A stretch of DNA of 44,350 nt from a virus (UHGV-0187309), one strand, 5' to 3'. Counted from the stretch's first letter, positions 10,602 to 38,661 are shown. Notes: generated from the sequence alone by a model not told the origin. Translations and numbers: made by a program.

Positions 10602-13487
10602 GTGGTGATTTTATTGAGCAGACGTGTACTTTCCATCGACTTAGAGACCTATTCGGATGTAGACCTCCCGAACTGCGGTGTGTACCGCTATGTTGAGGGA
10701 GATTTCCATATCCTGCTGTTCGCATATGCATTTGACGATGAGGAGACAAAATGCGTGGATATGGCCTGCGGGGAGCAGCTCCCGGCAGAGGTCGTGGATG
10801 CGCTGCAGGATGACAGTATTATCAAATCGGCATGGAACGCACAGTTTGAGCGTACCTGCCTTTCAAAATATCTCGGTACGCAGATTTCTCCGGACTCGTG
10901 GCAATGCACGATGGTATGGGCGGCATCGCTTTCACTTCCGCTGAAGCTGGCAACGGCTGCACAGGCACTGAAAACTGCACAGCAGAAGGACGCTGTCGGT
11001 GAGCGTCTTATCCGTTATTTCTCTCTGCCCTGTAAGCCCACCAAAGCAAACGGCGGCAGAACAAGAAATCTGCCGGAACACGCCCCCGAAGACTGGAAGC
11101 TGTTCAAAAGCTACTGCATACAGGACGTGGAAACCGAGCGGGATATCCGCCGCAGGCTTGAAAAGTTCCCCCTGCTCCCGCAGGAATGGGACTACTACCA
11201 CATGGATCAGCGGATCAATGATCGCGGTATCCTGATCGACAAAGAGCTTGTGCAGCAGGCTATTATCTGCAATATGGCAATGTCCGAAGAAATGACAAAA
11301 CGTGCATACGCTCTGACAGGACTTGAAAATCCGAATTCCGTATCACAGCTCAAGGGATGGCTTGAGGAGCGTGGCATTGAGGTGGATTCCCTCGGCAAAA
11401 AGAATGTCGCTTCTCTTATCACAGACCTCGACAGGCACAGCGCAGACGGTGAGGCTCTGGATATGATGAAGCTGCGGTTGCAGATGGCAAAGTCCTCTGT
11501 GAAAAAGTATCAGGCGGCAGAGAGATACATCTGTCAGGACGGCAGGGCGCACGGACTGTTTCAGTTTTCCGGAGCTCAGCGAACACAGCGCTGGTGTCTT
11601 ACCGGCGATCATGAAATACTGACAGATAAAGGCTGGCTCAGGCTTGATAATTGGCAGGGCGGTAAGATTGCTTGTTGGAATCCTAATCAGGAAATGGTCT
11701 CGTTCCAGAAAGCGAACGTATTGTGCTTTGAATATGACGGTCCTATCTACCGCTATGAGGACAAACGGATCGATCAGATCAGCACGCCGGATCACAAAAT
11801 GCGTGTAAAGAAACGGTATAACGGCGAGTGGACGGATGACACTGTTGGCAATATGGAAAAGTATCGTCCTTCTATTCCGTTTACCGGACGCAGACAAACG
11901 ATGCCCGGCTTGGAGCACGCAGAACTGAGGGTACTGGTGATGACGCAGGCTGACGGCAGCTATAAAGAAGATGGAATGCTCTGCTTCCATTTCAAGAAGA
12001 AAAGGAAAATAGAACGGTGCAAACATCTGCTCAGACAGGCGGGCATTTATTTCACAGTGAATGAATGCAGGACAGATGGAACAACGCAGATCAAGATTCC
12101 TTCCCGTGAGCAGCCGATGTATCTAAGAATGTTTCATAACAAGACATTTGGAATGTGGCTTCTCGATGAAAGCCCGGATGTTTTCTTTGATGAGCTTCGG
12201 TATTGGGACGGATCGCAAAGCGCCAAAAACAGTATCCAATATACCACAACGAACAAAGTGAATGCCGATATTGTTCAGGCTTTTGCTCATACAAGTGGTC
12301 GCTGTGCAAAAATGAAAACGGTCATCCGGGATAAAGAACACCCGAATTGGAGCGATGCATACTATCTCGATATATGGCTCACTCCGAAAAACTGTCATGA
12401 AATCAGAGTGAAGCCGACTATCTCGCAATTCAGCGGCAAAATATACTGTGCTGAAACCCCAACCGGATACTTCCTTGTAAGACGTAATGGTAAAGTGTGG
12501 GTAACAGGAAACAGCGGGCGCGGCATTCAATTACAGAACCTGCCGCAGAACCACATCTCTACCCTCGATGAAGCAAGAGAACTTGTCAAAATGGGCTGCT
12601 TTGACATGATCGAAGCACTGTACGGCAATACGCCGGATATCCTGTCACAGCTTATCCGCACGATGCTCATTCCGAAGGACGGCTGTGAATTTATCGTGGC
12701 AGACTTCTCCGCCATTGAAGCGAGAGTACTTGCGTGGCTTGCCGGAGAACAGTGGCGGCTCGATGCCTTCAAGCGTGGCGAGGATATTTACTGTGCATCC
12801 GCATCGCAAATGTTCGGTGTTCCGGTCGTGAAGCACGGCATCAATGGAGAACTGCGGCAGAAAGGCAAGGTCGCTGAGCTTGCCTGTGGTTACGGAGGTG
12901 GCAGCGGTGCGCTGATCTCTATGGGTGCGCTGGATATGGGACTGAAAGAGGATGAACTTCCCGACATCATTTCAAGCTGGCGCGATGCAAACCCGGAGAT
13001 CGTGAAATTCTGGTATGCCGTGGAGAAAGCGGCGATCGAAACAGTCAAGGACCACGCGGAAAGAACGGTCGGCAGGATCGGTTTTCAGTTCTCTGCAAAT
13101 ACACTGTGGATCGTGCTGCCGTCCGGGCGCAGACTTGCCTACATCAAGCCGAGGTTACAGCCGAACCGTTTCGGGCGTATGGCGCTGACCTTTGAAGGAC
13201 TCGGTGCAAACAACAAATGGACGCGCGGTGAGACATACAGCGGCAAGCTGACGGAGAACATCACACAGGCGACCGCCCGTGACCTGCTTGCAGAGGCAAT
13301 GCACCGAATGGAGCTTGCGGGACTTGACATAGTCGGTCATGTGCATGATGAGGTCATTTTGGAAGTGCCGAAAAGACAATATACGGTCGATGATGTGTGC
13401 AATATCATGAATCAAAATCCGAGATGGGCAGACGGTCTGCCCTTATCATCTGCCGGATATACCGGCAATTACTACTTCAAAGACTGA
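10602..13487 (+). CDS. family A DNA polymerase (3'-5' exo + pol) interrupted by an intein
   Basis: Exo motif LSIDLETYS. Pol motif A IVADFSAIEARVLAWLAG, motif B RQKGKVAELACGYGGG, motif C GHVHDEVILEV. The real start may be TTG 10614 (AGGTGGTGA RBS). Confidence 0.9.
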   Translation: MVILLSRRVLSIDLETYSDVDLPNCGVYRYVEGDFHILLFAYAFDDEETKCVDMACGEQLPAEVVDALQDDSIIKSAWNAQFERTCLSKYLGTQISPDSWQCTMVWAASLSLPLKLATAAQALKTAQQKDAVGERLIRYFSLPCKPTKANGGRTRNLPEHAPEDWKLFKSYCIQDVETERDIRRRLEKFPLLPQEWDYYHMDQRINDRGILIDKELVQQAIICNMAMSEEMTKRAYALTGLENPNSVSQLKGWLEERGIEVDSLGKKNVASLITDLDRHSADGEALDMMKLRLQMAKSSVKKYQAAERYICQDGRAHGLFQFSGAQRTQRWCLTGDHEILTDKGWLRLDNWQGGKIACWNPNQEMVSFQKANVLCFEYDGPIYRYEDKRIDQISTPDHKMRVKKRYNGEWTDDTVGNMEKYRPSIPFTGRRQTMPGLEHAELRVLVMTQADGSYKEDGMLCFHFKKKRKIERCKHLLRQAGIYFTVNECRTDGTTQIKIPSREQPMYLRMFHNKTFGMWLLDESPDVFFDELRYWDGSQSAKNSIQYTTTNKVNADIVQAFAHTSGRCAKMKTVIRDKEHPNWSDAYYLDIWLTPKNCHEIRVKPTISQFSGKIYCAETPTGYFLVRRNGKVWVTGNSGRGIQLQNLPQNHISTLDEARELVKMGCFDMIEALYGNTPDILSQLIRTMLIPKDGCEFIVADFSAIEARVLAWLAGEQWRLDAFKRGEDIYCASASQMFGVPVVKHGINGELRQKGKVAELACGYGGGSGALISMGALDMGLKEDELPDIISSWRDANPEIVKFWYAVEKAAIETVKDHAERTVGRIGFQFSANTLWIVLPSGRRLAYIKPRLQPNRFGRMALTFEGLGANNKWTRGETYSGKLTENITQATARDLLAEAMHRMELAGLDIVGHVHDEVILEVPKRQYTVDDVCNIMNQNPRWADGLPLSSAGYTGNYYFKD
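11595..12512 (+). mobile_element. 306-aa intein with LAGLIDADG-like homing endonuclease domain inside the DNA polymerase
   Basis: Extein junctions RTQRW|CLTGDHEILTDKGW ... GKVWVTGN|SGRGIQLQNLPQN. Block B STPDHKM. DOD-like motifs LRVLVMTQADGSY and FFDELRYWDGSQ. Removing it restores the contiguous RW-SGRGIQLQNLP polymerase motif. Confidence 0.8.
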
Positions 13488-17081: not shown

Positions 17082-17144
17082 GCACTGAAAAGACGACAAA
17101 GCGGCGACAAAACGGTTACACCGCACTCTATGGAGGTGAAAACT

Positions 17145-17648
17145 ATGGCGCGTAAGAACAAACGCCTGAAAACAGAATACCACAGAGGTCTCGGTTTTGA
17201 TCCGCGAAAGTATATGACTTCCTACTCCCACCAAACTCGCTGTGAATCAATTCCGACTCCCGACCGTGCTCCAAAGCGCGGCGATATCTGGTTTGCGCGG
17301 CTCGGCACACATCCGAATTCCAGTGTGCAGGGCGGCACCCGTCCCGTTATCATCATTTCTAACGACCTCGGCAACGAACACGCTGACACCGTCAATGTTG
17401 TGCCGATGACCAGACACCTGAAAAAGCCGGAGCTGCCTTGTCACACTCCGCTTTCTCCCGGCAGCATTACCGATAGCAGACAGCCGCTTGAACTGTCAAT
17501 GGTGCTGGCGGAGCAGCTCACAACTGTCAGCAAGAACGCACTTCGCTATTATGCAGGTCATATTTCCGATGACGAAGCTATGAACCGCATCGAAACCGCT
17601 GTTATTGCGCAGCTCAGTCTTGAAAGGAGATATTCCAAATGCCTGTGA
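17145..17648 (+). CDS. PemK/MazF-family endoribonuclease-like toxin with ~45-aa N-terminal extension
   Basis: GGAGGTG RBS before ATG 17145. PKRGDIWFARLG...GGTRPVIIISNDLGNEHADTVNVVPMT is the PemK/MazF core. No antitoxin-like ORF upstream. Confidence 0.72.
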   Translation: MARKNKRLKTEYHRGLGFDPRKYMTSYSHQTRCESIPTPDRAPKRGDIWFARLGTHPNSSVQGGTRPVIIISNDLGNEHADTVNVVPMTRHLKKPELPCHTPLSPGSITDSRQPLELSMVLAEQLTTVSKNALRYYAGHISDDEAMNRIETAVIAQLSLERRYSKCL

Positions 17649-20068
17649 ATTTTGTCAATATCCCAGATGTTCTGAAGCAGACCGCTTCTTTCTGTGTCTG
17701 GAAGCTGGAAAAGAGATCCGGCAGACCGACCAAAGTACCGTATAACCCTCGCACCGGTGCAATGGCGAGAACCAACGATCCGTCTACCTTTGCAGACTTC
17801 AATACAGCAATGAAATCCTATGCCATCGGCGGATGGGACGGTATCGGCTATCGTGTCAGCGAAGGCATCGGTGCAATCGACATCGACCACTGCATCCGTG
17901 AGGACGGCAGTCTCAATGATGTTGCAGCATCCATTCTCGGTATCTTCCCCGATGCGTACTTTGAGCGCAGCCCCTCTGGTACCGGCTTGCGCGGCTTTTT
18001 TCGCCTTTCTCCTGATTTCGCCTACGATAAGACTGTGTACTACATCAACAACCGAAAGCACGGTCTGGAGGTCTATCTTCCCGGTGTGACGAACCGCTTT
18101 GTGACTGTTACAGGAGATATGTTCCGCAATGGTGCAGTTACCCGAAATGACGGTTCCCTGCGCACACTACTTGATACCTTCATGAAGCGCAGCACCCGTG
18201 TATCTTCCAAGACTGTCGAGCCTGTGTCCTATCTCGATGATGACGGTGTTATCGCTCACGCATCGGCATCTGAATCCGGCGACAAGTTCAAAGCACTGTA
18301 TGCCGGTAACTGGGAGGAAGGCTACGATTCCCAGTCCGATGCAGATATGGCGCTTGTGTCTATCCTTGCATTCTGGTGCGGTAATGTCGAGGAGCAGATC
18401 GACCGTATCTTCCGAACTTCCGGTCTGATGCGTGATAAGTGGGATCGTATGACCGGAGACAGAACTTACGGACAGATCACGATCCGCAATGCTGTCGCTA
18501 CCAATTCCGCTGTCTATACACCGATTCAGGATTCTACGGCAGAAGATGACTTTGACGATATCGAGGGCGATGCGGAAAATGAGCAGCTTATGTTTGAGCC
18601 TGATCTCACCCATGTTTCCCTGACGCTGGAAGAAATGCAGCCGCACACGAATCCCCGCTATCAGCGTGACGAGATCGGCATCGGATATGCATTTGCGGAT
18701 TATTATAAGCCCATCGCTCGTTTTGACCGTGAGCGCGGCATCTGGTATGTCTTTGACGGGAAGGTGTGGCAGCCGGACGAGAATGCGCTTGCCGTGGCGG
18801 AGCTTGCAAAGCGTCTGGCAGACAGGCTGTATACCTTTGCCCTTCAGATCAAGGATGAGGACACACGCAACCGCTATATCAAGCGAGTGCAGAAGCTGCA
18901 AATGCGGAAGAACCGCCGCACCATGATCGAAGATGCGAAATCCGTGTATCCAGTGCCGCACGCTATCTTTGACCGCAATACCTACCTTTTCAACTGTCAG
19001 AACGGGACACTGAACCTCACCACAGGTGAATTCCGTCCGCACGATCCGGCAGACTTTCTCACCATGATGTCCGGTGTCACTTATGATCCGAACGCCACCT
19101 GTCCACGATGGGAGCAGTTCATTTCCGAAGTTATGTGTAATGATGCTGACCTCGCATTATACTTGCAAAAAGCCCTCGGATATGCGCTTACCGGCGACAC
19201 ATCACTGGAATGCCTGTTCATCCTCTACGGTGCAACATCCAGAAACGGCAAAGGCACCACAATGGAGACCTTTCTCAAAATCATGGGCGACTACGGCAAA
19301 ACCTCCAATCCGGAGATGCTGTCTACGAAATTCGGCAACACCAATGCTTCCGGACCGTCCGAAGAGATCGCCCGGCTTGCGGGTGTCCGTTTTGTCAATA
19401 TCTCCGAGCCGGAGAAGAAGATCACCTTCAATGCGGCACTGGTAAAGCGTATGACGGGTAATGATACACTGAATGCACGTTTCCTGCATGAGAATTCCTT
19501 CGACTTCCGACCGAATTTCAAGATCTTCATCAATACGAATTACAAACCGTCCGTTTCTGATATGACACTGTTTTACTCCAACCGTCTGAAGCTCATTCCG
19601 TTCAAACGCCATTTTGAGGAGCATGAGCAGGACAAAGGTCTGAAAGCATTTTTCAGTACGTATGTCTGCCTCTCTGCCATCTTCAACTGGTGCTATGAAG
19701 GATATAAGCGGTTCCGTTCCGAAGATCTGGAAGATCCGGCTGCTGTATCTCAAGCAACCAAGGAGTATCAGGAGGAGTCTGACCGTATCGGGCAGTTTGT
19801 GGATGCGTGGCTCGAAGAAGGCGAAGCATTTGAAGTCCGTACCTCTGCGGCATATAAGCTGTACGGTGAATGGTGCGATAAATATGGCTACCGCAAGGAA
19901 AACAGCACCAACTTCAATAACGCGATCCAGCGTTTCTTCCCCATCGTGCGTAAGCGCCCGAACGATACTAAGGGTGCGCAGAAAACAACGATGCTTGTGG
20001 GCTGTCGTTTTCTGGAGCATGAAAACGGCGAAGCTGACGAACCAGAGGAGTTTGCAGCTTTGGAGTAA
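17639..20068 (+). CDS. bifunctional prim-pol / D5_N / P4-type primase-helicase
   Basis: N-terminal prim-pol (FCVWKLEKRSGRPTKVPYNP...GAIDIDHC). C-terminal NTPase with Walker A YGATSRNGKGT. Starts 10 nt inside the MazF-like gene. Confidence 0.88.
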   Translation: MPVNFVNIPDVLKQTASFCVWKLEKRSGRPTKVPYNPRTGAMARTNDPSTFADFNTAMKSYAIGGWDGIGYRVSEGIGAIDIDHCIREDGSLNDVAASILGIFPDAYFERSPSGTGLRGFFRLSPDFAYDKTVYYINNRKHGLEVYLPGVTNRFVTVTGDMFRNGAVTRNDGSLRTLLDTFMKRSTRVSSKTVEPVSYLDDDGVIAHASASESGDKFKALYAGNWEEGYDSQSDADMALVSILAFWCGNVEEQIDRIFRTSGLMRDKWDRMTGDRTYGQITIRNAVATNSAVYTPIQDSTAEDDFDDIEGDAENEQLMFEPDLTHVSLTLEEMQPHTNPRYQRDEIGIGYAFADYYKPIARFDRERGIWYVFDGKVWQPDENALAVAELAKRLADRLYTFALQIKDEDTRNRYIKRVQKLQMRKNRRTMIEDAKSVYPVPHAIFDRNTYLFNCQNGTLNLTTGEFRPHDPADFLTMMSGVTYDPNATCPRWEQFISEVMCNDADLALYLQKALGYALTGDTSLECLFILYGATSRNGKGTTMETFLKIMGDYGKTSNPEMLSTKFGNTNASGPSEEIARLAGVRFVNISEPEKKITFNAALVKRMTGNDTLNARFLHENSFDFRPNFKIFINTNYKPSVSDMTLFYSNRLKLIPFKRHFEEHEQDKGLKAFFSTYVCLSAIFNWCYEGYKRFRSEDLEDPAAVSQATKEYQEESDRIGQFVDAWLEEGEAFEVRTSAAYKLYGEWCDKYGYRKENSTNFNNAIQRFFPIVRKRPNDTKGAQKTTMLVGCRFLEHENGEADEPEEFAALE

Positions 20069-20107
20069 AAGTAGACTTTTCTCCGTATTTACGCTGTTTT
20101 CCGCAGT

Positions 20108-20196
20108 TGGGGCAGCGTGGGGCAAGTTTTTTCGGTGGTTATTATTATTACTTCTCTTTATATATATTACTATTTTTACTTGCCCCTACTTGCCCC
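20108..20196. repeat. ori-like element: inverted pairs of TGGGGCA(AG) iterons flanking a 52-bp AT-rich core
   Basis: TGGGGCA 20108..20114 and TGGGGCAAG 20118..20126. CTTGCCCC 20179..20186 and 20189..20196. Core 20127..20178 is ttttttcggtggttattattattacttctctttatatatattactattttta. Confidence 0.35.
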
Positions 20197-20374
20197 AAAT
20201 AAATAAAAACAATAGAAAAGATAAGAAGAATAGAGGATTTTCACTGATTTGAACCATTACCCATTTTGCACTGTTTTGAACCTTGCCCGATGCTGTCACT
20301 GACAAAGAGTGTGTAAGCGACAAAGCGTGGCAAGGTCAAAATCCAATAAACAATCATACAGGAGGAACACGAAT

Positions 20375-21469
20375 ATGAGAATCATTACTTCAGAACAGGT
20401 ATCCGCAGGACATCCCGACAAGATCTGTGACCAAATCGCGGATGCCATCGTGACAGACTGCCTTCAGCATGACCGCAGCAGTCGTGTTGCGATAGAGTGT
20501 CTTTTCAAGAACCGCTGTCTTGTGATCGCCGGTGAGCTGACCAGTACCCATGAGCCGGACTACAAGGCTCTGGTGCAGCAGGTGTTCGACCGTATCAACA
20601 ACGGCGGAGCTGAGAACAGCGATGCGGGACTTGACTACAAGCTGGACTTCACCGCCGATGATCTGGACATTGCGATTCTGGTCGATCACCAGAGCAATGA
20701 CATTGCGCTCGGTGTGAATGTCGGCGGTGCAGGAGATCAGGGTATGATGTACGGCTATGCGACCAACGAAACGCCGGAGATGCTCCCGATCCCCTTCGTG
20801 CTGGCTACCAGATTTCTGGAACTGCTGAAAGCCTACCCCTGCCGTATGCTGAAAGCCGATGCAAAGGCACAGGTCAGCTATGACTATGACAGCGGTCGCA
20901 TTACCACCTTCCTCTGCTCGGTGCAGCATACACACGATGTGGATGTTGAGGACTTCAAGCCCATCATCGAAAAGCTGATGGTGAGAACGGCAACCGAATA
21001 CGGGCTGAATACAGACTTTGCAAAGCTCGTCAACCCGACCGGCAGATTTGTCATAGGCAGTTCCTTTGCGGACTGCGGCGTTACCGGACGCAAGCTCGCC
21101 TGCGATACCTATGGCGGTATCGGGCATATCGGCGGCGGTGCAATGTCCGGCAAAGATCCGTCTAAGGTTGACCGCAGCGGCGCATATGCAGCAAGAAAAA
21201 TCGCAAGGGATATCGTCAGCGCCGGATATTCAGACAAGGCAGAGGTGCAGATCGCATACGCCATCGGTGTGGCAGAGCCCGTATCCGTGTATGTAGAGAC
21301 TTTTGGCACGGAGCATCAGGATACGGAGTTCATCAACCAGTATGTTCGTGAGAATTATGACCTCACGCCGAGGGGAATCATCGAAGGGCTGCATCTGCTC
21401 GATGTGGACTATAACGCCATTTCCGCATACGGACACTTCGGAAAACAGAACCTTCCGTGGGAACTATAA
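20375..21469 (+). CDS. metK: S-adenosylmethionine synthetase
   Basis: Start at Met23 of the track ORF (AGGAGGA RBS). ITSEQVSAGHPDKICDQIADAI, GAGDQGMMYGYA, GGGAMSGKDPSKVDRSGAY. Confidence 0.92.
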   Translation: MRIITSEQVSAGHPDKICDQIADAIVTDCLQHDRSSRVAIECLFKNRCLVIAGELTSTHEPDYKALVQQVFDRINNGGAENSDAGLDYKLDFTADDLDIAILVDHQSNDIALGVNVGGAGDQGMMYGYATNETPEMLPIPFVLATRFLELLKAYPCRMLKADAKAQVSYDYDSGRITTFLCSVQHTHDVDVEDFKPIIEKLMVRTATEYGLNTDFAKLVNPTGRFVIGSSFADCGVTGRKLACDTYGGIGHIGGGAMSGKDPSKVDRSGAYAARKIARDIVSAGYSDKAEVQIAYAIGVAEPVSVYVETFGTEHQDTEFINQYVRENYDLTPRGIIEGLHLLDVDYNAISAYGHFGKQNLPWEL

Positions 21470-21495
21470 TAAATTTTTTGAAATTTTTTTTGATT

Positions 21496-21589
21496 GGATA
21501 CCCACAAAATGCCCTCTCCCACGACAGTATATGAGGGGCGTTGTTCAGACCGACCACAAACACACTACAAACCAAGCGGGACTGACCGC
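21496..21589 (+). promoter_or_regulatory. copy 2 of the two-copy structured element
   Basis: GGATACCCACAAAA, then CCTCTC-ccacgacagtatat-GAGGGG (U-A replaced by U.G), then CAAACC.AAGCGG and GCGG/CCGC (21576..21589). Confidence 0.6.
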
Positions 21590-25991: not shown

Positions 25992-26305
25992 GAGCCAGAC
26001 TGAAACCGCCGGGAGATGCTGTCCGCTGCGATGCCTGCGGATGTGCCTTTGTGCCGGAGCCGAAAATGCAGCGTGAGGGAGAGATCGAATACAGCTTCCT
26101 CAACTGTGATTACTGTGGCAAAGCGTATATCGTGTCTGTGACCGATGCCGCACTCCGCCGGAGCATCCGCAAGTACCGGACGCTTGCCGAAAAGCTGAAG
26201 GGCAAGCCGTTGAGTGAAGATACGCTCCGTGAGGTCACGGCGCTGAAGGATGCGAACACAAAAAGAGCCGCAGAGCTGCGGCAGATGTATATTCGGGAGG
26301 GATGA
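25988..26305 (+). CDS. hypothetical zinc-ribbon protein
   Basis: CDACGC...17 aa...CDYCGK. ATGA overlap with nrdG. Confidence 0.6.
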   Translation: MRARLKPPGDAVRCDACGCAFVPEPKMQREGEIEYSFLNCDYCGKAYIVSVTDAALRRSIRKYRTLAEKLKGKPLSEDTLREVTALKDANTKRAAELRQMYIREG

Positions 26306-26306
26306 G

Positions 26307-27578
26307 ATGAAAACAGCAGAACTTCGCATGATCCCTGTCTCGGAGCTGAAGCCTGCGGAATACAATCCGCGTAAAAAGCTGAAGCCCGGCGACAAGGAAT
26401 ACGAGAAGATCAAAAACAGCATCGAGGAATTCGGCTTTGCCGACCCGCTTGTTGTCAACGCCGACATGACGATCATCGGCGGACACCAGAGACTGACCGT
26501 AGCAACGGCGCTCGGTTACACGGAAGTTCCGTGTGCGGTGGTGGACATCGACAAAGTCCGTGAGAAGGCACTGAACATTGCGCTGAATAAGATCACGGGT
26601 GCATGGGACGAGAATCTTCTGGCGGAACTTCTCGAAGATATCCAGAGCAGCGATTTCGACCTCGGCAAGACCGGCTTTGATCCGCCGGAGATCGAGCAGC
26701 TTTTCAATGCCGTTCATGACAAGCAGGTCAGTGAGGACAGCTTCGATGTGGAGGAGGAGCTGCAAAAGCCGACATTCTCGCAGCCGGGAGATATCTGGAT
26801 TCTCGGCAGGCACAAAGTCATCTGCGGCGATAGTACAATCGCAGAGACATACACCAAGCTGATGGACGGGCAGAAGGCAAACCTCGTCCTGACCGATCCT
26901 CCGTACAATGTGGATGTTGAGGAAACTGCCGGAAAGATCATGAATGACAACATGAGCGACAGTGATTTCTATAGCTTCCTGCTTTCCGCTTACAAGTGTA
27001 TGTATGACAGTCTTGCCGATGACGGCAGCATTTATGTATGGCACGCCGACACCGAGGGGCTGAACTTCCGCAGAGCGTTCAAGGAGGCAGGCTTCCAGCT
27101 TTCTGGCTGCTGTATCTGGAAGAAGAATTCTCTGGTGCTGGGCAGAAGCCCCTATCAGTGGATTCATGAGCCGTGTCTCTTCGGGTGGAAACAGAAGGGC
27201 AAGCATCAGTGGTATGCCGACCGCAAGCAGACAACTGTATGGGAGTATGACAAGCCCAAGAGCAGCCCCGATCATCCGACCACAAAGCCTATCCCGCTGA
27301 TGGCGTACCCGATCAAGAACAGCACCATGACCAACGGCATCGTTCTCGATCCGTTCCTCGGCAGCGGTTCGACACTGATCGCCTGTTGCGAGACAGACCG
27401 TGTTTGTCGGGGCATCGAGCTTGATCCGAAGTTCGTGGATGTCATTGTCAAGAGGTATCTGGCATGGTGCCAAGAGAAGCAGACCGCCGAGGTCGCATAT
27501 GTCATTCGTGATGGACAGAAGCTCACCTATGAGGAGGCTATCGCAGCGATGCCGCAGGGCGGTGATGCAGTTGAGTGA
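26307..27578 (+). CDS. ParB-like nuclease domain fused to N6-adenine/N4-cytosine DNA methyltransferase
   Basis: ParB-N motifs IPVSELKPAEYNPRK and IIGGHQRL. MTase motif IV LVLTDPPYNV. Motif I VLDPFLGSGSTLIA. Confidence 0.88.
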   Translation: MKTAELRMIPVSELKPAEYNPRKKLKPGDKEYEKIKNSIEEFGFADPLVVNADMTIIGGHQRLTVATALGYTEVPCAVVDIDKVREKALNIALNKITGAWDENLLAELLEDIQSSDFDLGKTGFDPPEIEQLFNAVHDKQVSEDSFDVEEELQKPTFSQPGDIWILGRHKVICGDSTIAETYTKLMDGQKANLVLTDPPYNVDVEETAGKIMNDNMSDSDFYSFLLSAYKCMYDSLADDGSIYVWHADTEGLNFRRAFKEAGFQLSGCCIWKKNSLVLGRSPYQWIHEPCLFGWKQKGKHQWYADRKQTTVWEYDKPKSSPDHPTTKPIPLMAYPIKNSTMTNGIVLDPFLGSGSTLIACCETDRVCRGIELDPKFVDVIVKRYLAWCQEKQTAEVAYVIRDGQKLTYEEAIAAMPQGGDAVE

Positions 27579-28350: not shown

Positions 28351-28582
28351 ATGTGCGGTCGTGACCGCTTACACAGAGATTTCTATGCTCAAGGGCGACG
28401 ATCTGAAATATCTGTATGACTATCTTTCCGGCTTTATCGGCAGACCGGTGTATACACACGAGATTTCTGCTGTGGTGATGGCTTACAGAGAGCAGATCAG
28501 GGAGGACTTCCTCGATCTGTGCAGGAACGCAAAGGAGGCGGATGATGGATCAGAAACACTTGACTCTCGGCAGCTTATTTGA
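28337..28582 (+). CDS. hypothetical protein
   Basis: GGGGAGGA RBS. 81 aa. Overlaps both neighbouring MTase genes. Confidence 0.5.
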   Translation: MTKHECAVVTAYTEISMLKGDDLKYLYDYLSGFIGRPVYTHEISAVVMAYREQIREDFLDLCRNAKEADDGSETLDSRQLI

Positions 28583-31145
28583 CGGCTCCGGTGGCTTTCC
28601 GCTTGGCGGCATCCTTGCAGGGATCGAGCCGAAGTGGAGCAGCGAAATTGAACCATTCCCGGTGCTTGTCACGCACAAGCGGCTGCCGCAGGTGAAGCAC
28701 TACGGCGATGTATCCAAACTGAACGGAGCAGAGCTTCCGCCGGTGGATATCATCACCTTCGGCAGCCCGTGTCAGGATCTGTCCATAGCGGGCAAGCGCG
28801 CCGGAATCCATGACGGTGATCGGTCAAACCTGTTCTTTCAGGCGATCCGCATCATCAAAGAAATGAGGGATGCAACAAATGGACGATATCCGCGATACTG
28901 CGTCTGGGAAAATGTCCCCGGCGCTTTCTCATCCAACGGAGGAAACGACTTCAAGGCTGTCCTCGAAGCAGTTATCGGAGTTAAAGAAAAAGGGATCGAG
29001 GTGCCTGCGCCTGAAAATCACAGATGGGCAAAATCAGACGTATATCTGGGAGACGGATGGAGCGTGGCTTACCGAGTTTTCGATGCTCAATACTGGGGTG
29101 TCCCCCAACGCAGAGCAAGAATCTACCTTGTCGCAGATCTTGCTGGTGGAAGTGCCGGAGAAGTATTATTTAAGTCCGAAGGCGTGTCTGGGTATACTCC
29201 GCAGGGCTTCCGTGCGTGGCAAGGAGCTGCCGGAGGTGCTGAAGAAGGCACTGGAGAGACAGGCGGGCGGTCTGACGCTGGAGGTGGAACCCTCTGCCTG
29301 AATACACAGGGCAACAGCGGCGTCGGCATCACCGAGAACAAGGCTCTCGCACTGGTCGCACAGGATCATGGCAATCATCCGGCTGTGCTTCATGCGGTCG
29401 GTATCGACGGCTACAATGCTGCGGTCACCGATGATACGGCAGCAACGCTTGGTGTGAACTGCGGAATGTCCACAGGCAGAAACGGTGTCCTGCAGGCGGC
29501 GGGATTTTCCACAGAACACAGTGCAAAAGCAAGGAGCATCGGCTACGAGGAAGAGGTATCTCCCACACTTCGAGCCGGTGTTGTTCCGGCGGCAATGGAG
29601 TTATATGAAAATCATGGGCAGGACAGCAGATTCAGAGGACCTTTGGATGTAGCACAGCCTGTGACTGCTACCTACGGCATGGGCGGCAACAATCAGCCGC
29701 TTGTGGTAGAGAACAATCCCACGGACGGCAGAGCGAAGATCAATCCCGACGGTGTGTTTCAGACGCTCTGCGGACGAGCCGGAACAGGCGGAAACAACAC
29801 GCCGCTTGTTGCTGAACCGGTCACGCTGAAAATCAGGTCGGGATGTGAGGGCGGTGGCAAGGGTGCTTTATGGCAGACCGACAAGTCTGCTACGCTCGGC
29901 ACAAACAATGACCAGAGTGTATTTGTTCCGTTCGTCAAGGGAACACGTCCGCACTCTGCTGAAGAGGGGCAAACATGGAAACCCGGCGAGGTCGCCAATA
30001 CACTGAATACCTTTGATGTCGGTGAAAGTCGCTGCAATGAACTTGTGGTGGAAGAGCCGCAGATCAGGGCTTTCGGTGTATGCAGCAAGCATTCCAATGC
30101 GATGATGTCCGACAATCCGCACAGCGGATTCTATGAGGCGACCACAAGCAGAACGCTCGACCAAAGTGGTGGAAATTCTGTGACATCGAATCAGGGCGGC
30201 ATCTGCGTGGTAGCACCTGCGCCTGAAACCTTCGATGTGCGTTTCACATCAGACGGTACAAAAAACGCTCGTGGGCATTGCTATCCGACAGACATCTCCC
30301 GATGCCTTGATACGAGCGAGGGATCGCCAGACTCGAATCACGGCGGTGTCGCTGTGGTGGCTCTTGAACCGGGGGCTGCATCACGTGTCGGCGGTCATGT
30401 ATACAGTGACGGCAAAAGCGGTACGCTTCGAGCCAATGCCGGCGATAATCAGCAGGCTGTTGTGGTCGCCGAGCCGGAGACCTATGCTCTGCAAGGCTCG
30501 ATGATCGGTCGTGCCGACAAGAACGGTCCGCAGGGTGATGGCATCAACGAGGATGTGTGCTTTACGCTCAATACATCGGACAGACACGCCATTGCCGCAC
30601 CTGATCCGTCCTTCACAATTTCCCGCGACAACCATTTTGCCGTTTCGGAGGATGTATCCGTTACAGCCGTGGCAAGAGGCCCTGCGGCAGTCGCAGCACC
30701 GGCAGACCACTATTGCACCAGTAAGAATTCGCATCATACGGTCGCCGCCCATGAGCAGGCAAACACGCTGGTCGCTTCCGACTGGAAGGATCCGCCGCTT
30801 GTGAACGACCTTCCGAATGACGAGCCAGTATATATCGTTCGCCGCTTGACTCCGGTTGAGTGCGCCAGATTGCAGGGATTCCCTGACTGGTGGTGTGCCG
30901 ACCTTGCAATTACTGATCCTTCCGATGAGGAGATCGCCTTCTGGACGGAGGTCTGGGAGACATGGCGGCAGGTCACAAATCCCAAGGGCAAGCCGAAAAC
31001 GGAAAAGCAGATCCGCAAATGGCTGGCTGATCCGTACACGGATTCAGCGGAGTACAAGCTGTGGGGCAACGGTGTCTCAGAGCCGGTCGTATACTTCGTG
31101 CTTTCCGGCATCGCATGGGCAGCGCAGAGAGATACACAAAAGTGA
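28542..31145 (+). CDS. dcm: DNA (cytosine-5)-methyltransferase with ~570-aa repetitive variable (TRD) region
   Basis: Motif I LFDGSGGF, IV FGSPCQDLS, VI CVWENVPG, VIII QRRARIYLV, IX RRLTPVECARLQGFP, X LWGNGVSEPV. About 1.7 kb lies between motifs VIII and IX. Confidence 0.9.
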   Translation: MMDQKHLTLGSLFDGSGGFPLGGILAGIEPKWSSEIEPFPVLVTHKRLPQVKHYGDVSKLNGAELPPVDIITFGSPCQDLSIAGKRAGIHDGDRSNLFFQAIRIIKEMRDATNGRYPRYCVWENVPGAFSSNGGNDFKAVLEAVIGVKEKGIEVPAPENHRWAKSDVYLGDGWSVAYRVFDAQYWGVPQRRARIYLVADLAGGSAGEVLFKSEGVSGYTPQGFRAWQGAAGGAEEGTGETGGRSDAGGGTLCLNTQGNSGVGITENKALALVAQDHGNHPAVLHAVGIDGYNAAVTDDTAATLGVNCGMSTGRNGVLQAAGFSTEHSAKARSIGYEEEVSPTLRAGVVPAAMELYENHGQDSRFRGPLDVAQPVTATYGMGGNNQPLVVENNPTDGRAKINPDGVFQTLCGRAGTGGNNTPLVAEPVTLKIRSGCEGGGKGALWQTDKSATLGTNNDQSVFVPFVKGTRPHSAEEGQTWKPGEVANTLNTFDVGESRCNELVVEEPQIRAFGVCSKHSNAMMSDNPHSGFYEATTSRTLDQSGGNSVTSNQGGICVVAPAPETFDVRFTSDGTKNARGHCYPTDISRCLDTSEGSPDSNHGGVAVVALEPGAASRVGGHVYSDGKSGTLRANAGDNQQAVVVAEPETYALQGSMIGRADKNGPQGDGINEDVCFTLNTSDRHAIAAPDPSFTISRDNHFAVSEDVSVTAVARGPAAVAAPADHYCTSKNSHHTVAAHEQANTLVASDWKDPPLVNDLPNDEPVYIVRRLTPVECARLQGFPDWWCADLAITDPSDEEIAFWTEVWETWRQVTNPKGKPKTEKQIRKWLADPYTDSAEYKLWGNGVSEPVVYFVLSGIAWAAQRDTQK

Positions 31146-31222: not shown

Positions 31223-31405
31223 TCATTCAGATTTCTTGTCTCCGCCAAGCTCGATCTTTCCGTGCTTTTCCTCATATTTTTCAATGCAGTCACGGATCAG
31301 GATCAGAACCTGACTGTTGGCAGAACGACCTTCGTAATCGGCAACAACGTGAAGTTTATCAAGCATCTCCTGTTCGATACGGATGGATACACTTTTAATA
31401 GCCAT
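31223..31405 (-). CDS. ribbon-helix-helix (CopG/Arc-like) DNA-binding protein
   Basis: 60 aa. MAIKSVSIRIEQEMLDKLHVVADYEGRSANSQVLILIRDCIEKY fits a beta-alpha-alpha RHH. AAAGGAAG RBS. The only minus-strand gene between 4.4 and 44.3 kb. Confidence 0.72.
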   Translation of the reverse strand: MAIKSVSIRIEQEMLDKLHVVADYEGRSANSQVLILIRDCIEKYEEKHGKIELGGDKKSE

Positions 31406-31518
31406 AAAACAACTTCCTTTCAGATATATTATGACTTTATTTTAGACCTGTTTTGTGGTATAATGTTTGAAATGGATATAAAGTGTATCTAAAATATATC
31501 TATAAGAAGTTGTACGAT

Positions 31519-31857
31519 ATGAAAATAGCAATTATTGGCTCACGGGGACTTCATGTGAATGACCTTGAACGGTATCTTCCGGAAGATGTCACAGAAATCG
31601 TCAGCGGAGGAGCAAGGGGCATTGATTCGGATGCGCGGGCATACGCACAGGCACACGGCATTCCGCTGAAGGAGTTTCTGCCGGATTATGAACGCTTCGG
31701 CAGGAGCGCCCCGCTGAAACGGAATCTTGAGATCATCGCTTATGCCGATGTGGTGCTTGCATTCTGGGACGGACAGTCACGCGGCACGAAATATGTGATA
31801 GACCATTGCCGGGAACAGCACGTTCCGGTCAGGGTTTTCGCACCGAGAAAGAAATAG
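31519..31857 (+). CDS. SLOG-superfamily protein (DUF2493 / YpsA-DprA-like Rossmann fold)
   Basis: MKIAIIGSRG...VSGGARGIDSDARAYA...VLAFWDGQSRGTKYVI. Preceded by the extended -10 TGgTATAAT (hexamer 31459..31464). Confidence 0.7.
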   Translation: MKIAIIGSRGLHVNDLERYLPEDVTEIVSGGARGIDSDARAYAQAHGIPLKEFLPDYERFGRSAPLKRNLEIIAYADVVLAFWDGQSRGTKYVIDHCREQHVPVRVFAPRKK

Positions 31858-35613: not shown

Positions 35614-36084
35614 ATGAACGACAGCTACTTTGAGGAGATGACCTTCCAGTGCGCCGCCTATGAACGCGCCAAAAAGGAGCGCGCCGAGCGCAAGGCTCAG
35701 ATTGCCGAAGCCCACGGCTACGACAGCCCGGAGGTGGACGCTTGGTACGCTGAGGAGAAGGCGGCAGGTCCTTACCCCTACAGCGGCAATGAGATGAAAG
35801 CCTACTGGGTGTACAAGATGCGCCGCGAGAACGACGGTGACGAGTTCGAGATGAGCGATTACTGCTGGGACAAGGAATTCCACGATTTCATCGAAACGCT
35901 CCGCAAGCTAGGCATCACCGAGTTCACGATCACCAATCAGAGCACGGCGCTGATGGAGAACATCTACGGATTTATTGCAGAAGGCTGCACGATGGTCGGA
36001 ACGCACACCATCACCAAGAAGAGCCTGCGCTGGGGCGAGGAAGAATACGAAACGGCACAGGGCATCCTTTTCAAGGTGAACTGA
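35614..36084 (+). CDS. hypothetical protein
   Basis: Start at the ATG preceded by GGAGGATACGAAC, the same RBS spacing as the other cassettes. 156 aa. Confidence 0.65.
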   Translation: MNDSYFEEMTFQCAAYERAKKERAERKAQIAEAHGYDSPEVDAWYAEEKAAGPYPYSGNEMKAYWVYKMRRENDGDEFEMSDYCWDKEFHDFIETLRKLGITEFTITNQSTALMENIYGFIAEGCTMVGTHTITKKSLRWGEEEYETAQGILFKVN

Positions 36085-36092
36085 TATCGACA

Positions 36093-36116
36093 GGAGCAGG
36101 GCTTCGGCTCTGCTCC
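36093..36116 (+). terminator. 10-bp stem with TTCG loop, no U-tract
   Basis: GGAGCAGGGC ttcg GCTCTGCTCC. The 21-nt core GCAGGGCTTCGGCTCTGCTCC recurs at 38541..38561. Confidence 0.3.
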
Positions 36117-36201
36117 CCTCCCCCTTTTCCTCATGTGTAAATCCTACAATACGAAAGGCTGAGATCGGCGATTCTTCTACGTTTTATTTTGCACATAGGC
36201 G

Positions 36202-36230
36202 TGGACTTATCAGCAGGATCATGGTAATAT
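36202..36230 (+). promoter_or_regulatory. cassette promoter P5
   Basis: TGGACT 36202..36207, 17 nt, TAATAT 36225..36230. Confidence 0.55.
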
Positions 36231-36285
36231 GTGACACAACGGAAGGGCAGAACGCCTACCGAAAAACGAAACGGAGGATAACACC

Positions 36286-36606
36286 ATGAACCCCTACACA
36301 CTGAGAAAGAGCCTGAACCTGATTGATGCCAACACGGCGATCACCCGCGAGGACTTCGAGAGCCTCTTCTGCAAGACTGCAGAGCGTGTCACCTTTACCT
36401 TCAACGGTTGGGACGGCAAGAGCTATGATGGCGAGAGGCGCAGCGGTTACGTTTACCGCACCATCATCGAGGGCTACGAGAATGTGAGATTCGTTAAGGT
36501 CGGCAAGGGACTGCATTACATCGATGAGGACAGCAGCATTACCGAGAAGGCTACGGGCATCGCCCACAAGGAAGCAGAGTGGCTGGTCGATGTGAAGAGA
36601 GCATAA
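36286..36606 (+). CDS. hypothetical protein
   Basis: 106 aa, CGGAGGATA RBS. Confidence 0.65.
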   Translation: MNPYTLRKSLNLIDANTAITREDFESLFCKTAERVTFTFNGWDGKSYDGERRSGYVYRTIIEGYENVRFVKVGKGLHYIDEDSSITEKATGIAHKEAEWLVDVKRA

Positions 36607-36672
36607 GCAAAACAGCGGAGCCCTTCCTGCGGGGAGGGCTTACCGCAGAAAAAAACATGGAGGTTTACGAAC

Positions 36673-37056
36673 ATGAGTACGAATTCAAGAGTCGGAATTC
36701 TGCATCAGGACGGCGTCACGGAGACAATCTACTGCCATTGGGACGGCTACCCCGAACACCAGATGCCCATCCTCACCGAGCATTATAACACCGCCGAGAA
36801 GGTCAAGGCACTGCTTGCCCTTGGAGACATCAGCATCCTCGGCGAGCGCCTTGCTCCCGATGCGGATGAGCCGCACAGCTTTGAAAAGCCTGCCGATGGT
36901 GTGACGGTTGCTTACCACCGCGACCGCAAAGAGCCGATGCAGCCTGCGGTCACCCACAAGAGCGTTGTTTCCCTGATGAGCGATGACTGGGGCATTCCGT
37001 ATTACTACCTTTTCGATGAGGAAAAAGGAGCATGGCTTCCGCCGACCGAGGACTGA
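36673..37056 (+). CDS. hypothetical protein
   Basis: 127 aa, GGAGG RBS 9 nt upstream. Probably co-transcribed with 36286..36606. Confidence 0.65.
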   Translation: MSTNSRVGILHQDGVTETIYCHWDGYPEHQMPILTEHYNTAEKVKALLALGDISILGERLAPDADEPHSFEKPADGVTVAYHRDRKEPMQPAVTHKSVVSLMSDDWGIPYYYLFDEEKGAWLPPTED

Positions 37057-37236
37057 TAGGTTCAGCCCTGCGGGGCTGACTTGCCCCACGTTGTCCTTTG
37101 TGCGGTTTTCCTGCGATAAGCTTGCCCCTGCGGAAAGCCGCCTCACACGGCGCGTTTGTGTGCCTCCTGTGGGCTTGGTGCTATGTATACAACAAATGGC
37201 GCAGATACGCCGATTTTGTTCTGAACATTTAGCCGC

Positions 37237-37265
37237 TTGCTATTCCGGAAAGATCATGGTAATAT
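37237..37265 (+). promoter_or_regulatory. cassette promoter P6
   Basis: TTGCTA 37237..37242, 17 nt, TAATAT 37260..37265. Confidence 0.55.
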
Positions 37266-37321
37266 GCTACACAACGGAAGGGCAAACGCCCACCGAATAC
37301 AAAACACGGAGGTAAACCACC

Positions 37322-37687
37322 ATGACAAAGAAGGAAATGAAAGCCGCAGTTGCCAAGCTGAAGATGCTGCAGAACGGCAAAGCCGCCCTTGAGGGAATGA
37401 CCGAAGCGGACTGCCTTGAGCTTTTCGGGATCAGCAGAGCGCAGGCACTTGCAAACACAAACGCCGCCCTTGCCAAAACCGAGCAGGAGATTTTCAGAGC
37501 CGAGCATCCGCTGACAGGCATCGACAAACAGCTCTTCGAGATCGCAGCAAAGCACCTGATCACGGTGCAGGAGCGCGGAGACCTTGAAGCCCGCCACTGC
37601 GACAGCGAGGACTTCATCGAGGGTTCGGTCTGGGGGCTGGAAGCCGCCCTCAAGGATGCCTACGAGGCAGGACGCAAGAGCAAGTAA
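37322..37687 (+). CDS. hypothetical protein
   Basis: 121 aa, CGGAGGTAA RBS. Confidence 0.65.
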   Translation: MTKKEMKAAVAKLKMLQNGKAALEGMTEADCLELFGISRAQALANTNAALAKTEQEIFRAEHPLTGIDKQLFEIAAKHLITVQERGDLEARHCDSEDFIEGSVWGLEAALKDAYEAGRKSK

Positions 37688-37749
37688 CCAAACGGAACAG
37701 CGCAGCCCTTCCGCAGGGAGGGGCTGCCAATCCCGAAGGAGGAAAGAAC

Positions 37750-37929
37750 ATGGATACATACGCACAGCTTGAAATGCTGACCGCAGTCATCGCAAACCTG
37801 TCGGCCACGGGAACATGGACGGAGCGAGAAGTGATGGAAACGCTGCTGGATGTCTTTGAACCGAAGGAGCTTGAACAGCTCGGCTACGGCGACTGCGTGA
37901 ACGCATACTTGGAAGAGTACGGCGGATAG
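37750..37929 (+). CDS. small hypothetical protein (59 aa; below the ORF-track cutoff)
   Basis: Own translation: MDTYAQLEMLTAVIANLSATGTWTEREVMETLLDVFEPKELEQLGYGDCVNAYLEEYGG. GGAGGA RBS 7 nt upstream. Confidence 0.5.
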   Translation: MDTYAQLEMLTAVIANLSATGTWTEREVMETLLDVFEPKELEQLGYGDCVNAYLEEYGG

Positions 37930-38099
37930 CGACGACACACGCACCACGTTGCCTCGTGTGGGGCGGTGCCGGGGAGATGCGTACAGCTTGCCCCTGCGAA
38001 AAGCCGCCTTACACGGCGCGTTCTGGCGCGTCCTATACGATGTACAATTCCGCCCGACTTCCCGCCTCATGTTTGTCACATTTATTTTGCAGACAGACG

Positions 38100-38128
38100 T
38101 GGACTTTTCTGCGAAAAGACGGTAATAT
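38100..38128 (+). promoter_or_regulatory. cassette promoter P7
   Basis: TGGACT 38100..38105, 17 nt, TAATAT 38123..38128. Confidence 0.55.
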
Positions 38129-38175
38129 GTGACTACCGCAAGAGAAGCGGAATCAATCAAAAGGAGCGAATCTAC

Positions 38176-38529
38176 ATGAAAATTCTGGTATGCGAACCCG
38201 GCAAGCACCCCTACGTCAAGGACATCGAGTCGGGGCTGGAGAACCTTCAGCACGAGGTGGACGGACTGATTCAGGCCCTCTACCCATTTTCCGAAGAGGC
38301 GGCTGTTGTGTGCAACGAAGAAGGGCTGTTCCGCGATGACCTCGAATGGAACAGAACGGTCGATCCCTATGGTCCGATCAAGGGAACATTCTTCATTTGT
38401 GGGCTCGGCTTTGAAGATTTTACAGGACTGACCGATGAACAGATCGAAAAGTACACTAAGCTCTTCTGGCCTCCTGAGCTTTTCATCCCGACACCGAACG
38501 GCATGGTGGTGCTTCACATTGTGGAATGA
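38176..38529 (+). CDS. DUF3846-like protein
   Basis: MKILVCEPGKHPYVKDIESGLENLQHEVDGLIQALYPFSEEAAVVCNEEGLF...GTFFICG. Confidence 0.72.
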   Translation: MKILVCEPGKHPYVKDIESGLENLQHEVDGLIQALYPFSEEAAVVCNEEGLFRDDLEWNRTVDPYGPIKGTFFICGLGFEDFTGLTDEQIEKYTKLFWPPELFIPTPNGMVVLHIVE

Positions 38530-38632
38530 CCGCAACAGGGGCAGGGCTTCGGCTCTGCTCCGCACTATTCCCCGGTCATAATGTACACAACTGAACGCCG
38601 AAAAATGCAGAAATGATCGTGATTACTCACGC

Positions 38633-38661
38633 TTGATAATGTAGGCAAGAAGAGTTATACT
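38633..38661 (+). promoter_or_regulatory. cassette promoter P8
   Basis: TTGATA 38633..38638, 17 nt, TATACT 38656..38661. Confidence 0.5.

Follow-up and report, generated by a model that had tools for sequence, protein, structure and literature searches.

The virus UHGV-0187309 is represented here by 44,350 nt of DNA, analysed as a whole and referred to as the window. Immediately downstream of a gene for an 809-aa primase-helicase, this window carries two pairs of short repeats that face each other across an AT-rich core. We consider it very probable that this site (20107-20198) is the replication origin of the phage. Its repeats would be iterons read by the wing of the C-terminal domain (CTD) of the adjacent prim-pol/SF3 protein, and the core would serve as the unwinding element. 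This interpretation is favoured because the architecture is kept in about 60 diverged relatives while the repeated word changes, and because the nearest solved homologue of the protein, PriRep5 of the staphylococcal pathogenicity island SaPI5, has a verified origin of the same design downstream of its gene. Initiator sites flanking an unwinding element had already been put forward in the original prediction. That proposal is now supported computationally by the conserved architecture, the concerted change of the word, its covariation with the wing and the homology to PriRep5, and all of the computational tests that separate initiator sites from the alternatives came out in their favour.

The repeat arms, the core and the adjacent protein

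Direct reading of the sequence between 19900 and 20500 placed TGGGGCAG at 20108-20115 and TGGGGCAAG at 20118-20126 on the plus strand, forming the left arm. The right arm consists of CTTGCCCC at 20179-20186 and 20189-20196, both copies lying inside a perfect 10-nt tandem (TACTTGCCCC twice, 20177-20196). On the minus strand, TGGGGCA is exact at 20191-20197 and has one mismatch at 20181-20187. An independent repeat finder returned inverted-repeat arms at 20107-20127 and 20178-20198, which are 21 nt long, 81% complementary and 50 nt apart. Both approaches agree with the layout first noticed, in which two direct TGGGGCA(AG) repeats at 20108 and 20118 face two direct CTTGCCCC repeats at 20179 and 20189. 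The first iteron begins 39 nt past the stop codon of the primase-helicase gene (20066-20068), where about 40 nt had been estimated.

The octamer CTTGCCCC occurs eight times in the window compared with 1.28 expected, and at least eight copies were seen in 0 of 100 shuffles. In order to assess the arrangement independently of the word, we searched for any 6-mer present as two direct and two inverted copies with a period of 9-12 bp and arms 30-150 bp apart. The iteron site was the sole occurrence in 44 kb, and such an arrangement arose in 1 of 300 first-order Markov simulations. TGGGGCA was not enriched outside the site, and this generic search found no second cluster of the word in the window.

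The core (20127-20178) has the composition A11 C5 G4 T32, corresponding to 83% A+T, and is T-rich on the plus strand. The 52-bp AT-rich core of the original prediction is borne out, its description as almost free of G/C being slightly overstated given nine G/C in 52 bp. In a nearest-neighbour calculation the core ties for the lowest 50-bp duplex stability in the window, at -51.5 kcal/mol against a mean of -71.7 (standard deviation 4.7), that is 4.3 standard deviations under the mean. The other least stable duplex segment, 31390-31535, is AT-rich and intergenic between two divergent genes, one on the minus strand that encodes 60 aa (31223-31405) and one on the plus strand with its start at 31520. 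No iteron-like arrangement of two plus two copies is present there, and the segment looks like a moron with divergent promoters.

Pfam matches of the 809-aa protein comprise D5_N (1.3e-34), NrS1-1_pol-like_HBD (4.6e-28) and, at the C-terminus, Pox_D5 (2.6e-08), together with a match to RFX_DNA_binding in the same C-terminal region that is below the cut-off (6.6e-4). The protein matches PHROG 1829 'DNA primase' (3.3e-172), and its best match among PDB sequences is SaPI5 PriRep5 (7OLA, 4.6e-42), with NrS-1 primase matching at 2e-33. For residues 661-809, an AlphaFold2 model based on 55 diverse C-terminal fragments shows the fold of a winged helix (mean pLDDT 86.7). Its elements run in the order strand b1, helix, recognition helix STNFNNAI (756-763), b2 IVRK (769-772), wing (773-782) and b3 TTMLVGCRF (783-791). 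The best Foldseek matches of the model in the PDB were the RFX DNA-binding domains 8zjr_M and 1dp7_P (E 6e-4 and 1e-3; TM score 0.75), and the next were the CTD of the ASFV PrimPol and the Orc1/Cdc6 winged-helix domain on origin DNA.

The architecture is conserved while the word is replaced

For each fetched locus we located the stop codon of the orthologous gene and read the following 330-500 bp. Loci L001-L047 are IMG/VR contigs and L048-L116 are GTDB genomes. The relatives come in large numbers from IMG/VR, from metagenome-assembled genomes of rumen and gut, and from isolates of Oscillospiraceae, Ruminococcus, Lachnospiraceae, Blautia, Dorea and Faecalibacterium. The GTDB loci include prophages of isolates, such as L058 in Dorea acetigenes Sanger_03, L075 in Blautia faecis DFI.3.66, L076 in Faecalibacterium intestinale CLA-AA-H281, L091 in Clostridium fessum SNUG30386 and L070 in Ruminococcus flavefaciens 007c. 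About 60 distinct loci, nearly all, keep two direct and two inverted 7-8-mers with a period of 9-10 bp at the same place after the gene. The distance between the starts of the inner iterons is 61-63 bp, or about six helical turns, in most loci, 57-70 bp in several and up to 110 bp in the most distant. In most relatives the core measures 54-56 bp with 75-88% A+T, and in some distant loci it is longer and somewhat less AT-rich. The word itself is TGGGGCA in the window and its nearest relatives, and elsewhere TGTAGCA, TGTCGCA, TGTTGCA/T/C, TGTAGGA, TGTAGAT, TGTAAAAG, TGGGAAAG, TGGGGAT, TGGGCAG, TGTGCAG or TGTGACA. These locus-specific changes are found in all four copies together. In L056 (198-300 after the stop) and L058 (60-155 after the stop), TGGGGCA forms the outer iterons and GTGGCA(AG) the inner pair, in a mirror-symmetric arrangement.

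Among close relatives the core is better conserved than the iterons. In an alignment of 13 sequences it is almost invariant (…GTTTTTTCGGTG.TTATTAT.T.TAC.T.TCTTTATATATATTACT.T.TTTAC…), with long invariant runs and the motif TCTTTATATATATTACT. Within the arms only positions 3-4 of each of the four words vary, and the sequence 5' of the left arm is poorly conserved.

A megablast search of 17600-21500 against 50,697 phage records gave no match, and hence no close cultured relative. At the protein level all phage matches were below 60% identity, with the full-length ones at about 31% among the matches listed. Cultured phages with such primases (about 31% identical) share the design, in the gap of 200-290 bp after the gene. 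Bacillus phi105 has TGTTACT twice, AT-rich DNA and then AGTAACA twice; Latilactobacillus TMW 1.591 P1 has GGTGTAGG three times and CCTACAC three times; and the same two-sided design follows the primase gene of Listeria PSA and Staphylococcus phiSP15-1. A literature search returned no relevant description of a phi105 origin, and no origin assignment for this prophage family turned up in the records or literature searched. The structure follows the primase gene whatever comes next, be it metK, VRR-NUC, a Holliday-junction resolvase or unknown open reading frames (ORFs).

Extra repeats are present 0-200 bp after the primase stop in L019, L038, L011, L024 and L068. They include five copies of GCAACA with 11-bp spacing in L038, three 22-bp units in L019 and about nine copies of ATGCTAT spaced by 10 bp in L068. 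The word repeated in L038, L019 and L011 matches the iteron of the respective locus, and the extra repeats may be auxiliary initiator sites.

The wing tip covaries with the iteron word

The hypervariable stretch of the orthologue C-termini sits between the invariant RKRP and the conserved strand TTM(L/V). Mapped on the AlphaFold2 model, the variable residues of the CTD are those of the wing tip, A780, Q781 and K782, which we propose as the specificity determinant for the iterons. In all 13 classes with a lysine at the wing tip (QK, EK, SK) the word begins with TGGG, which puts G at iteron position 3. Tips that lack lysine (GP, NP, TP, SQ, GQ, SA, NA, ST, CT, SM, NM, GM, NV, GA) were accompanied by TGT in 31 of 31 classes. 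Tip residue and iteron position 3 agree in all 44 locus classes (Fisher 1.9e-11, uncorrected for phylogeny). Within clades, GGP/NP is found with TGTAGCA, GSQ with TGTCGCA, GSA/GST/GAC with TGTTGC, and GSM with TGTAAAAG; the tip is GGP in L005 and L009 and GSQ in L010. The cognate specificity of the initiator CTD for its iterons is indicated here by covariation alone.

Pairs of relatives that differ in tip and word are similar in the rest of the CTD. Outside the wing, L024 (GGEK, TGGGAAAG) and L025 (GGSM, TGTAAAAG) are 93% identical in this domain, and L055 (GSK, TGGGCAG) and L016 (GSQ, TGTCGCA) 91%; the corresponding values are 79% for L023 and L100, 72% for L086 and L077, and 85-91% in the window's own clade. 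In the case of L037 (AQK) and L009 (GGP), the core and all of the downstream sequence through metK are near-identical, the four iterons differ at positions 3-4 only, and differences in the coding sequence are concentrated in the wing codons and the C-terminal tail.

In RFX proteins the wing W1 is inserted in the major groove and helix H3 in the minor groove (PMC2533330; PMC4538799). The reading of the major groove by W1 fits with specificity residing in the wing. The RFX half-site GTTGnC (PMC4538799) also resembles the TGTTGC iterons of several relatives, which we take as a lead and not as a test. It is conceivable, at somewhat less than an even chance in our judgement, that the wing tip constitutes a simple and repeatedly rewritten code, in which Lys would specify G at position 3, and Pro, Gln, Ala, Thr or Met would specify TA, TC, TT and so on. 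Close gut phages would then have switched origin specificity many times through two or three residues and two bases in each of four sites, and orthogonal replicons would avoid cross-initiation between co-resident prophages. 'Stem-loop' origins of the pRN1 type would, on the same proposal, be co-evolving inverted iterons.

Four protein sites or a continuous stem

Inverted arms of this kind could also function by base pairing. The origin might act as an extruded stem-loop (hairpin or cruciform) in which the 21-nt arms are paired and the structure is recognized, as proposed for pRN1 and phage BIP-1. The complementarity of the arms (81%) is in keeping with such a structure, as is the folding of single-stranded DNA and RNA, which pairs the arms with a z of about -3.4. 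The essential element of pRN1 has nearly the same geometry and was read as a stem-loop (PMC4234260), and L056 and L058 keep their mirror symmetry despite differing inner and outer words. We made pair counts for the hypothetical 21-bp stem on the 13-sequence alignment and observed that the iteron core positions are 100% complementary, with compensatory changes on both sides. The counts are equal in both iterons of an arm: columns 55 and 65 each have UA in eight sequences and GC in five, and columns 56 and 66 each have GC in five, AU in four and CG in four. This equality shows that all four sites change in concert.

Between the iterons the picture is different, with three spacer positions unpaired in 8, 11 and 5 of the 13 sequences, respectively. 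Continuous pairing of the arms, as proposed for pRN1, was not found as a conserved feature in these relatives, given the unpaired spacers and the duplication of the words within the arms. A stem does not need the two words of an arm to match, yet virtually every word class has them identical. Protein sites, and not pairing, likewise explain the 9-10-bp period and the way in which the word covaries with a DNA-binding wing. Folded as a hairpin, the site gives an interrupted stem of 7+8 bp with a loop of at least 50 nt, which is weak at -16 kcal/mol as DNA and is followed by an A-run. Overall the pattern fits four copies of one protein site and not a continuous stem, and we regard a stem-loop origin as improbable.

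Other functions for the site

A different possibility is that the site controls transcription without origin function, either as an operator or autoregulatory site or as a promoter or terminator between the replication genes and the metK operon, and is bound by the primase winged helix or another regulator. It is intergenic between two co-oriented operons, RFX-type winged helices are eukaryotic transcription factors, and initiators often autoregulate. A terminator-like site followed by a T-run was flagged at 20088-20121. In this lone match of the terminator scan, however, the stem is G-U-rich, the loop measures 8 nt and the T-run is shifted by 8 nt; such matches were no commoner than in shuffles, and the promoter/terminator scan as a whole likewise yielded no more than shuffles did. 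The arms themselves do not have the form of a Rho-independent terminator, as they enclose 50 nt and are followed by an A-run rather than a U-run. Across the whole window nothing reached the gathering score in Rfam, and locally, at E<=10, the only matches were spurious ones to miRNA and snoRNA families. The earlier judgement that the site would make a poor terminator as RNA stands in view of the weak interrupted stem, the large loop and the A-run. Moreover, the scan detected no sigma-70-like promoter here on the plus strand, the site is downstream and not upstream of the gene for its putative binder, and the structure is present whatever gene follows the primase. Homologous systems of this design are proven origins (PMC9371898). 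A role confined to transcriptional control therefore appears distinctly improbable.

Short repeated sites around AT-rich DNA are also found at attP arms, pac sites and parS, and the window encodes a methyltransferase with a ParB-N domain (26250-27578). It is nevertheless highly improbable that the site is an attP core, a packaging site (pac/cos) or parS. In prophages within large bacterial contigs (L091 in a 1.09-Mb scaffold; L075, L076, L087 and L058) the structure remains whole and internal beside the primase gene, which excludes an attP core, since that would be split. The terminase gene (40371-43037) is 20 kb from the site, which makes a pac site unlikely, and the word covaries with the primase wing. 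With respect to a DnaA-dependent origin, we found no TTATCCACA with up to one mismatch within 2 kb of the site.

Weighing the origin interpretation

Several observations weigh against an origin read by the wing. Cumulative GC skew, put forward as a check in the original prediction, has no inflection at 20.1 kb; it tracks the direction of genes and transcription, with its minimum at the divergent switch at about 4 kb, and is uninformative about the site. A PDB sequence search with the CTD only gave an insignificant match to PriRep5 (E 0.36). The site has four iterons of 7-8 bp, fewer than the 6-12 iterons of 5-6 bp in SaPIs, and the origin of PriRep5 has been characterized by biochemical assays, whereas the phage site is known from sequence alone. 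L013 has an intact primase-helicase with a GGP wing tip and no iteron or AT-rich structure downstream of the gene (after position 6412). Unrelated, apparently coding sequence takes its place, and L013 may be a rearranged or defective element. The inner-outer mismatch combined with mirror symmetry in L056 and L058 is also what a base-paired structure predicts. As for the covariation, its Fisher value takes no account of phylogeny, and L037 and L009 have exchanged the C-terminal tail and the upstream spacer as well. With wing codons and iterons only 120-240 bp apart, some of the covariation could stem from their inheritance together as a single recombination module. That the K/G rule recurs in deep, separate lineages speaks for its maintenance by function.

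What we computed is the architecture of the site, its positional conservation, the concerted change of the words, their covariation with the wing tip, the winged-helix fold of the CTD and the low stability of the core duplex. We infer binding, melting, helicase loading, priming and the direction of replication. In the mechanism that we propose, the 809-aa protein would bind the four 7-8-bp iterons through its C-terminal RFX-like winged helix, with the beta-hairpin wing reading the major groove and A780-Q781-K782 specifying iteron positions 3-4 (TG-GG-GCA). The sites within an arm are one helical turn apart, and the inner sites, in opposite orientation, about six turns (63 bp), so that protein assembled to either side of the core would share one face of the helix, probably forming two opposed hexamers. 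The 52-bp AT-rich core between these assemblies would melt, SF3 helicase rings would load on the single strands, and the N-terminal prim-pol would synthesize the initial primers, for extension by the family-A DNA polymerase (10602-13487) that the phage itself encodes.

These results place a predicted origin on an uncultured phage of gut or rumen Clostridia and, by extension to its relatives, on the large prophage family found in Oscillospiraceae, Ruminococcus and Lachnospiraceae. Such a prediction can be used in annotation, in the interpretation of coverage (peak-to-trough ratios) and in the design of shuttle or orthogonal replicons for anaerobes that are hard to engineer. The relationship of wing-tip residues to iteron positions 3-4 further provides a testable rule for protein-DNA specificity.

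Genome setting and neighbouring elements

The window is a segment of a temperate Caudoviricetes genome with a CI-like repressor on the minus strand, followed by a long rightward block. This block encodes, in order, a sigma-like protein, an exonuclease, a Gp2.5-like single-stranded DNA-binding protein, the family-A DNA polymerase, DUF932, an SNF2 helicase, a MazF-like protein, the primase-helicase, then after the iteron site MetK, NrdD, two DNA methyltransferases, small-gene cassettes and TerL. The coordinates of the site and of the initiator gene are collected in Table 1. The A/G-rich tract that follows the right arm may be an auxiliary part of the origin.

Table 1. Features of the predicted origin and of the gene for its putative initiator (positions in the window)
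Feature	Position	Strand	Basis
Gene of the 809-aa putative initiator	17639..20068	+	N-terminal AEP prim-pol and NrS-1-type helix-bundle domain, D5_N/SF3 helicase, C-terminal winged helix
Winged-helix core, residues ~725-791	19811..20011	+	AlphaFold2 model
Wing loop R773-K782 (RPNDTKGAQK), codons	19955..19984	+	Only hypervariable stretch of the CTD; tip A780-Q781-K782
Left arm, two direct iterons: TGGGGCA(G) at 20108, TGGGGCA(AG) at 20118	20108..20126	+	10-bp period; position and period kept in relatives, word replaced
AT-rich core, proposed DNA-unwinding element; 52 bp, TTTTTTCGGTGGTTATTATTATTACTTCTCTTTATATATATTACTATTTTTA	20127..20178		Composition, stability rank, alignment
Right arm, two inverted iterons: CTTGCCCC at 20179 and 20189	20179..20197	-	10-bp period; word positions 3-4 change jointly with the left arm (13 aligned relatives)
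A/G-rich tract, A28 of 44, partly conserved (…ATAGAAAAGATAAGAAGAATAG…)	20198..20240	+	Composition and alignment of relatives

Within the replication module, a gene with a MazF/PemK-like toxin domain (17130-17648; Pfam 9e-22) overlaps the start of the primase-helicase gene by its final 10 nt. The family-A DNA polymerase (961 aa) has a polymerase match only in its C-terminal third, its middle part matching PhoH-like and RNR PHROGs, and the match of the large terminase (888 aa) falls into two separate parts. An inserted domain or an intein may be present in either protein.

Downstream of the site, the phage gene for MetK (S-adenosylmethionine synthetase) occupies 20375-21469, and in most relatives (L001-L111) metK is about 0.3-1.5 kb downstream of the predicted origin. 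Genomes that bear metK also carry several DNA methyltransferases, encoded in the window at 26250-27578 (the ParB-N fusion) and 28542-31145. In the metK leader (20238-20345), 27 nt are repeated in tandem at 20238-20264/20265-20291 and 18 nt at 20294-20329 (TGTCACTGACAAAGAGTG/TGTAAGCGACAAAGCGTG), and there is an outer inverted repeat, CCTTGCC…GGCAAGG. Many relatives have a homologous leader before metK, with an internal hairpin (CTGTGG…CCACGG) of variable length. Examined as a riboswitch or leader RNA, the leader has a conserved outer stem CTTGCC/GGCAAG, weak RNAalifold covariation (term 0.08) and no Rfam match; it may be either an RNA element or a site for a regulator.

The iteron octamer recurs elsewhere in the window. 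The copies of CTTGCCCC originally reported at 37080, 37121, 37987 and 39313 were found at these positions, and a further one is present at 28031 on the minus strand. Those at 37121, 37987 and 39313 are inside a 65-nt repeat family (…CTTGCCCC.GCG.AAAGCCGCC.CACACGGCGC…) that recurs between small genes, accompanied by a repeated promoter/5'-untranslated region (5'-UTR) unit. The copy at 37080 is 28 nt upstream of the first 65-nt unit, in a spacer segment that resembles its counterparts before other units. All the cassette copies are single and have no partner in 10-bp phase, and a leader with CTTGCC upstream of metK is retained in relatives whose iteron word is a different one. For these reasons the link of the cassette octamers to the origin, which the original prediction had already treated as a possible coincidence, is probably coincidental. 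We also considered the cassette copies as extra initiator sites and rejected this, since they are single copies in the 65-nt repeat family and TGGGGCA is not enriched outside the origin site.

The cassette repeats extend over 36060-39480 between small ORFs, with 65-nt units at 37108, 37974 and 39300 and repeated terminator-like hairpins. A promoter-like unit with a conserved 5'-UTR (…GGTAATATG…ACAACGGAAGGGC…CCGAA…GGAGG) is present at 36217, 37252, 38647 and 39440. The region looks like a modular small-gene array, in which each gene has its own copy of the same expression signals.

Comparison with known systems

The predicted origin belongs to a known kind of system, the self-loading primase-helicase replicon as known from SaPI pri-rep-ori and the archaeal pRN1 ORF904, and does not represent a new kind. 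SaPI Reps are initiators as well as self-loading SF3 helicases, and their CTD winged helix recognizes short iterons (PMC9371898). These iterons are directly downstream of the rep ORF and have an AT-rich centre (PMC9371898, citing Ubeda et al. 2007 and 2012), the conserved feature of the SaPI ori being at least two iterons per side in opposite directions (PMC9371898). PriRep5 binds ori5 in electrophoretic mobility-shift assays and drives the replication of ori5 plasmids in vivo in a two-plasmid assay, for which the CTD is required (PMC9371898). The phage has the same organization. Like PriRep5 (PDB 7OLA/7OM0), its protein unites AEP primase, SF3 helicase and C-terminal winged helix in a single chain, and, as in the SaPI pri-rep-ori arrangement, the site is directly 3' of the ORF, with at least two opposed iterons on each side of an AT-rich centre. 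In SaPIs specificity resides in the CTD, and covariation alone suggests the same placement in the phage. The phage element differs in being a complete temperate phage of gut or rumen Clostridia and not a staphylococcal satellite.

The RFX DNA-binding domain (1DP7, 8ZJR) is the best fold match of the phage CTD, and the covariation suggests that the two are alike in their mode of recognition. In contrast to the phage protein, RFX is a eukaryotic transcription factor that binds as a dimer to the palindromic X-box, and its identity to the phage CTD is 18-23%. The satellite phage P4 requires, besides an ori that does not adjoin the alpha gene, a further cluster of repeats (crr) several kb away; in the phage window, by contrast, the generic 6-mer search detected no second iteron cluster. 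P4 alpha is a single polypeptide with primase, SF3 helicase and, at the C-terminus, a winged-helix domain that binds short repeats at the origin (PMC2777425, PMC4234260). The P4 primase is of the DnaG/Toprim type, whereas that of the phage is an AEP prim-pol.

A further parallel is the archaeal plasmid pRN1, whose ORF904 has prim-pol, D5_N/SF3 and winged-helix domains matching pfam03288/pfam02257 (PMC2777425). The essential and sufficient origin element of pRN1 begins 54 bp after orf904 and comprises a 21-nt inverted repeat with a 58-nt centre, the symmetry of which is kept among relatives while the sequence is not (PMC4234260). The authors read the element as a stem-loop, found no cognate site, and described a similar element in phage BIP-1 (PMC4234260). 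The phage shares the domain order and a large inverted repeat shortly after the gene, with 21-nt arms 50 nt apart and beginning 39 nt after the stop. Its arms differ from those of pRN1 in that each consists of two direct copies of one word, the spacers are unpaired and the word tracks the winged-helix wing, which together argue for duplex iterons in the phage family. This bears on a disagreement in the literature over whether prim-pol/SF3/winged-helix initiators read inverted duplex iterons, as in the SaPI view, or a stem-loop, as in the pRN1 view, and the phage family may illustrate how a pRN1-like signature arises from co-evolving inverted iterons. What the analysis adds is the family-wide architecture, the rule that relates wing tip to iteron, and evidence on the question of iterons versus a stem-loop for this class of initiators.

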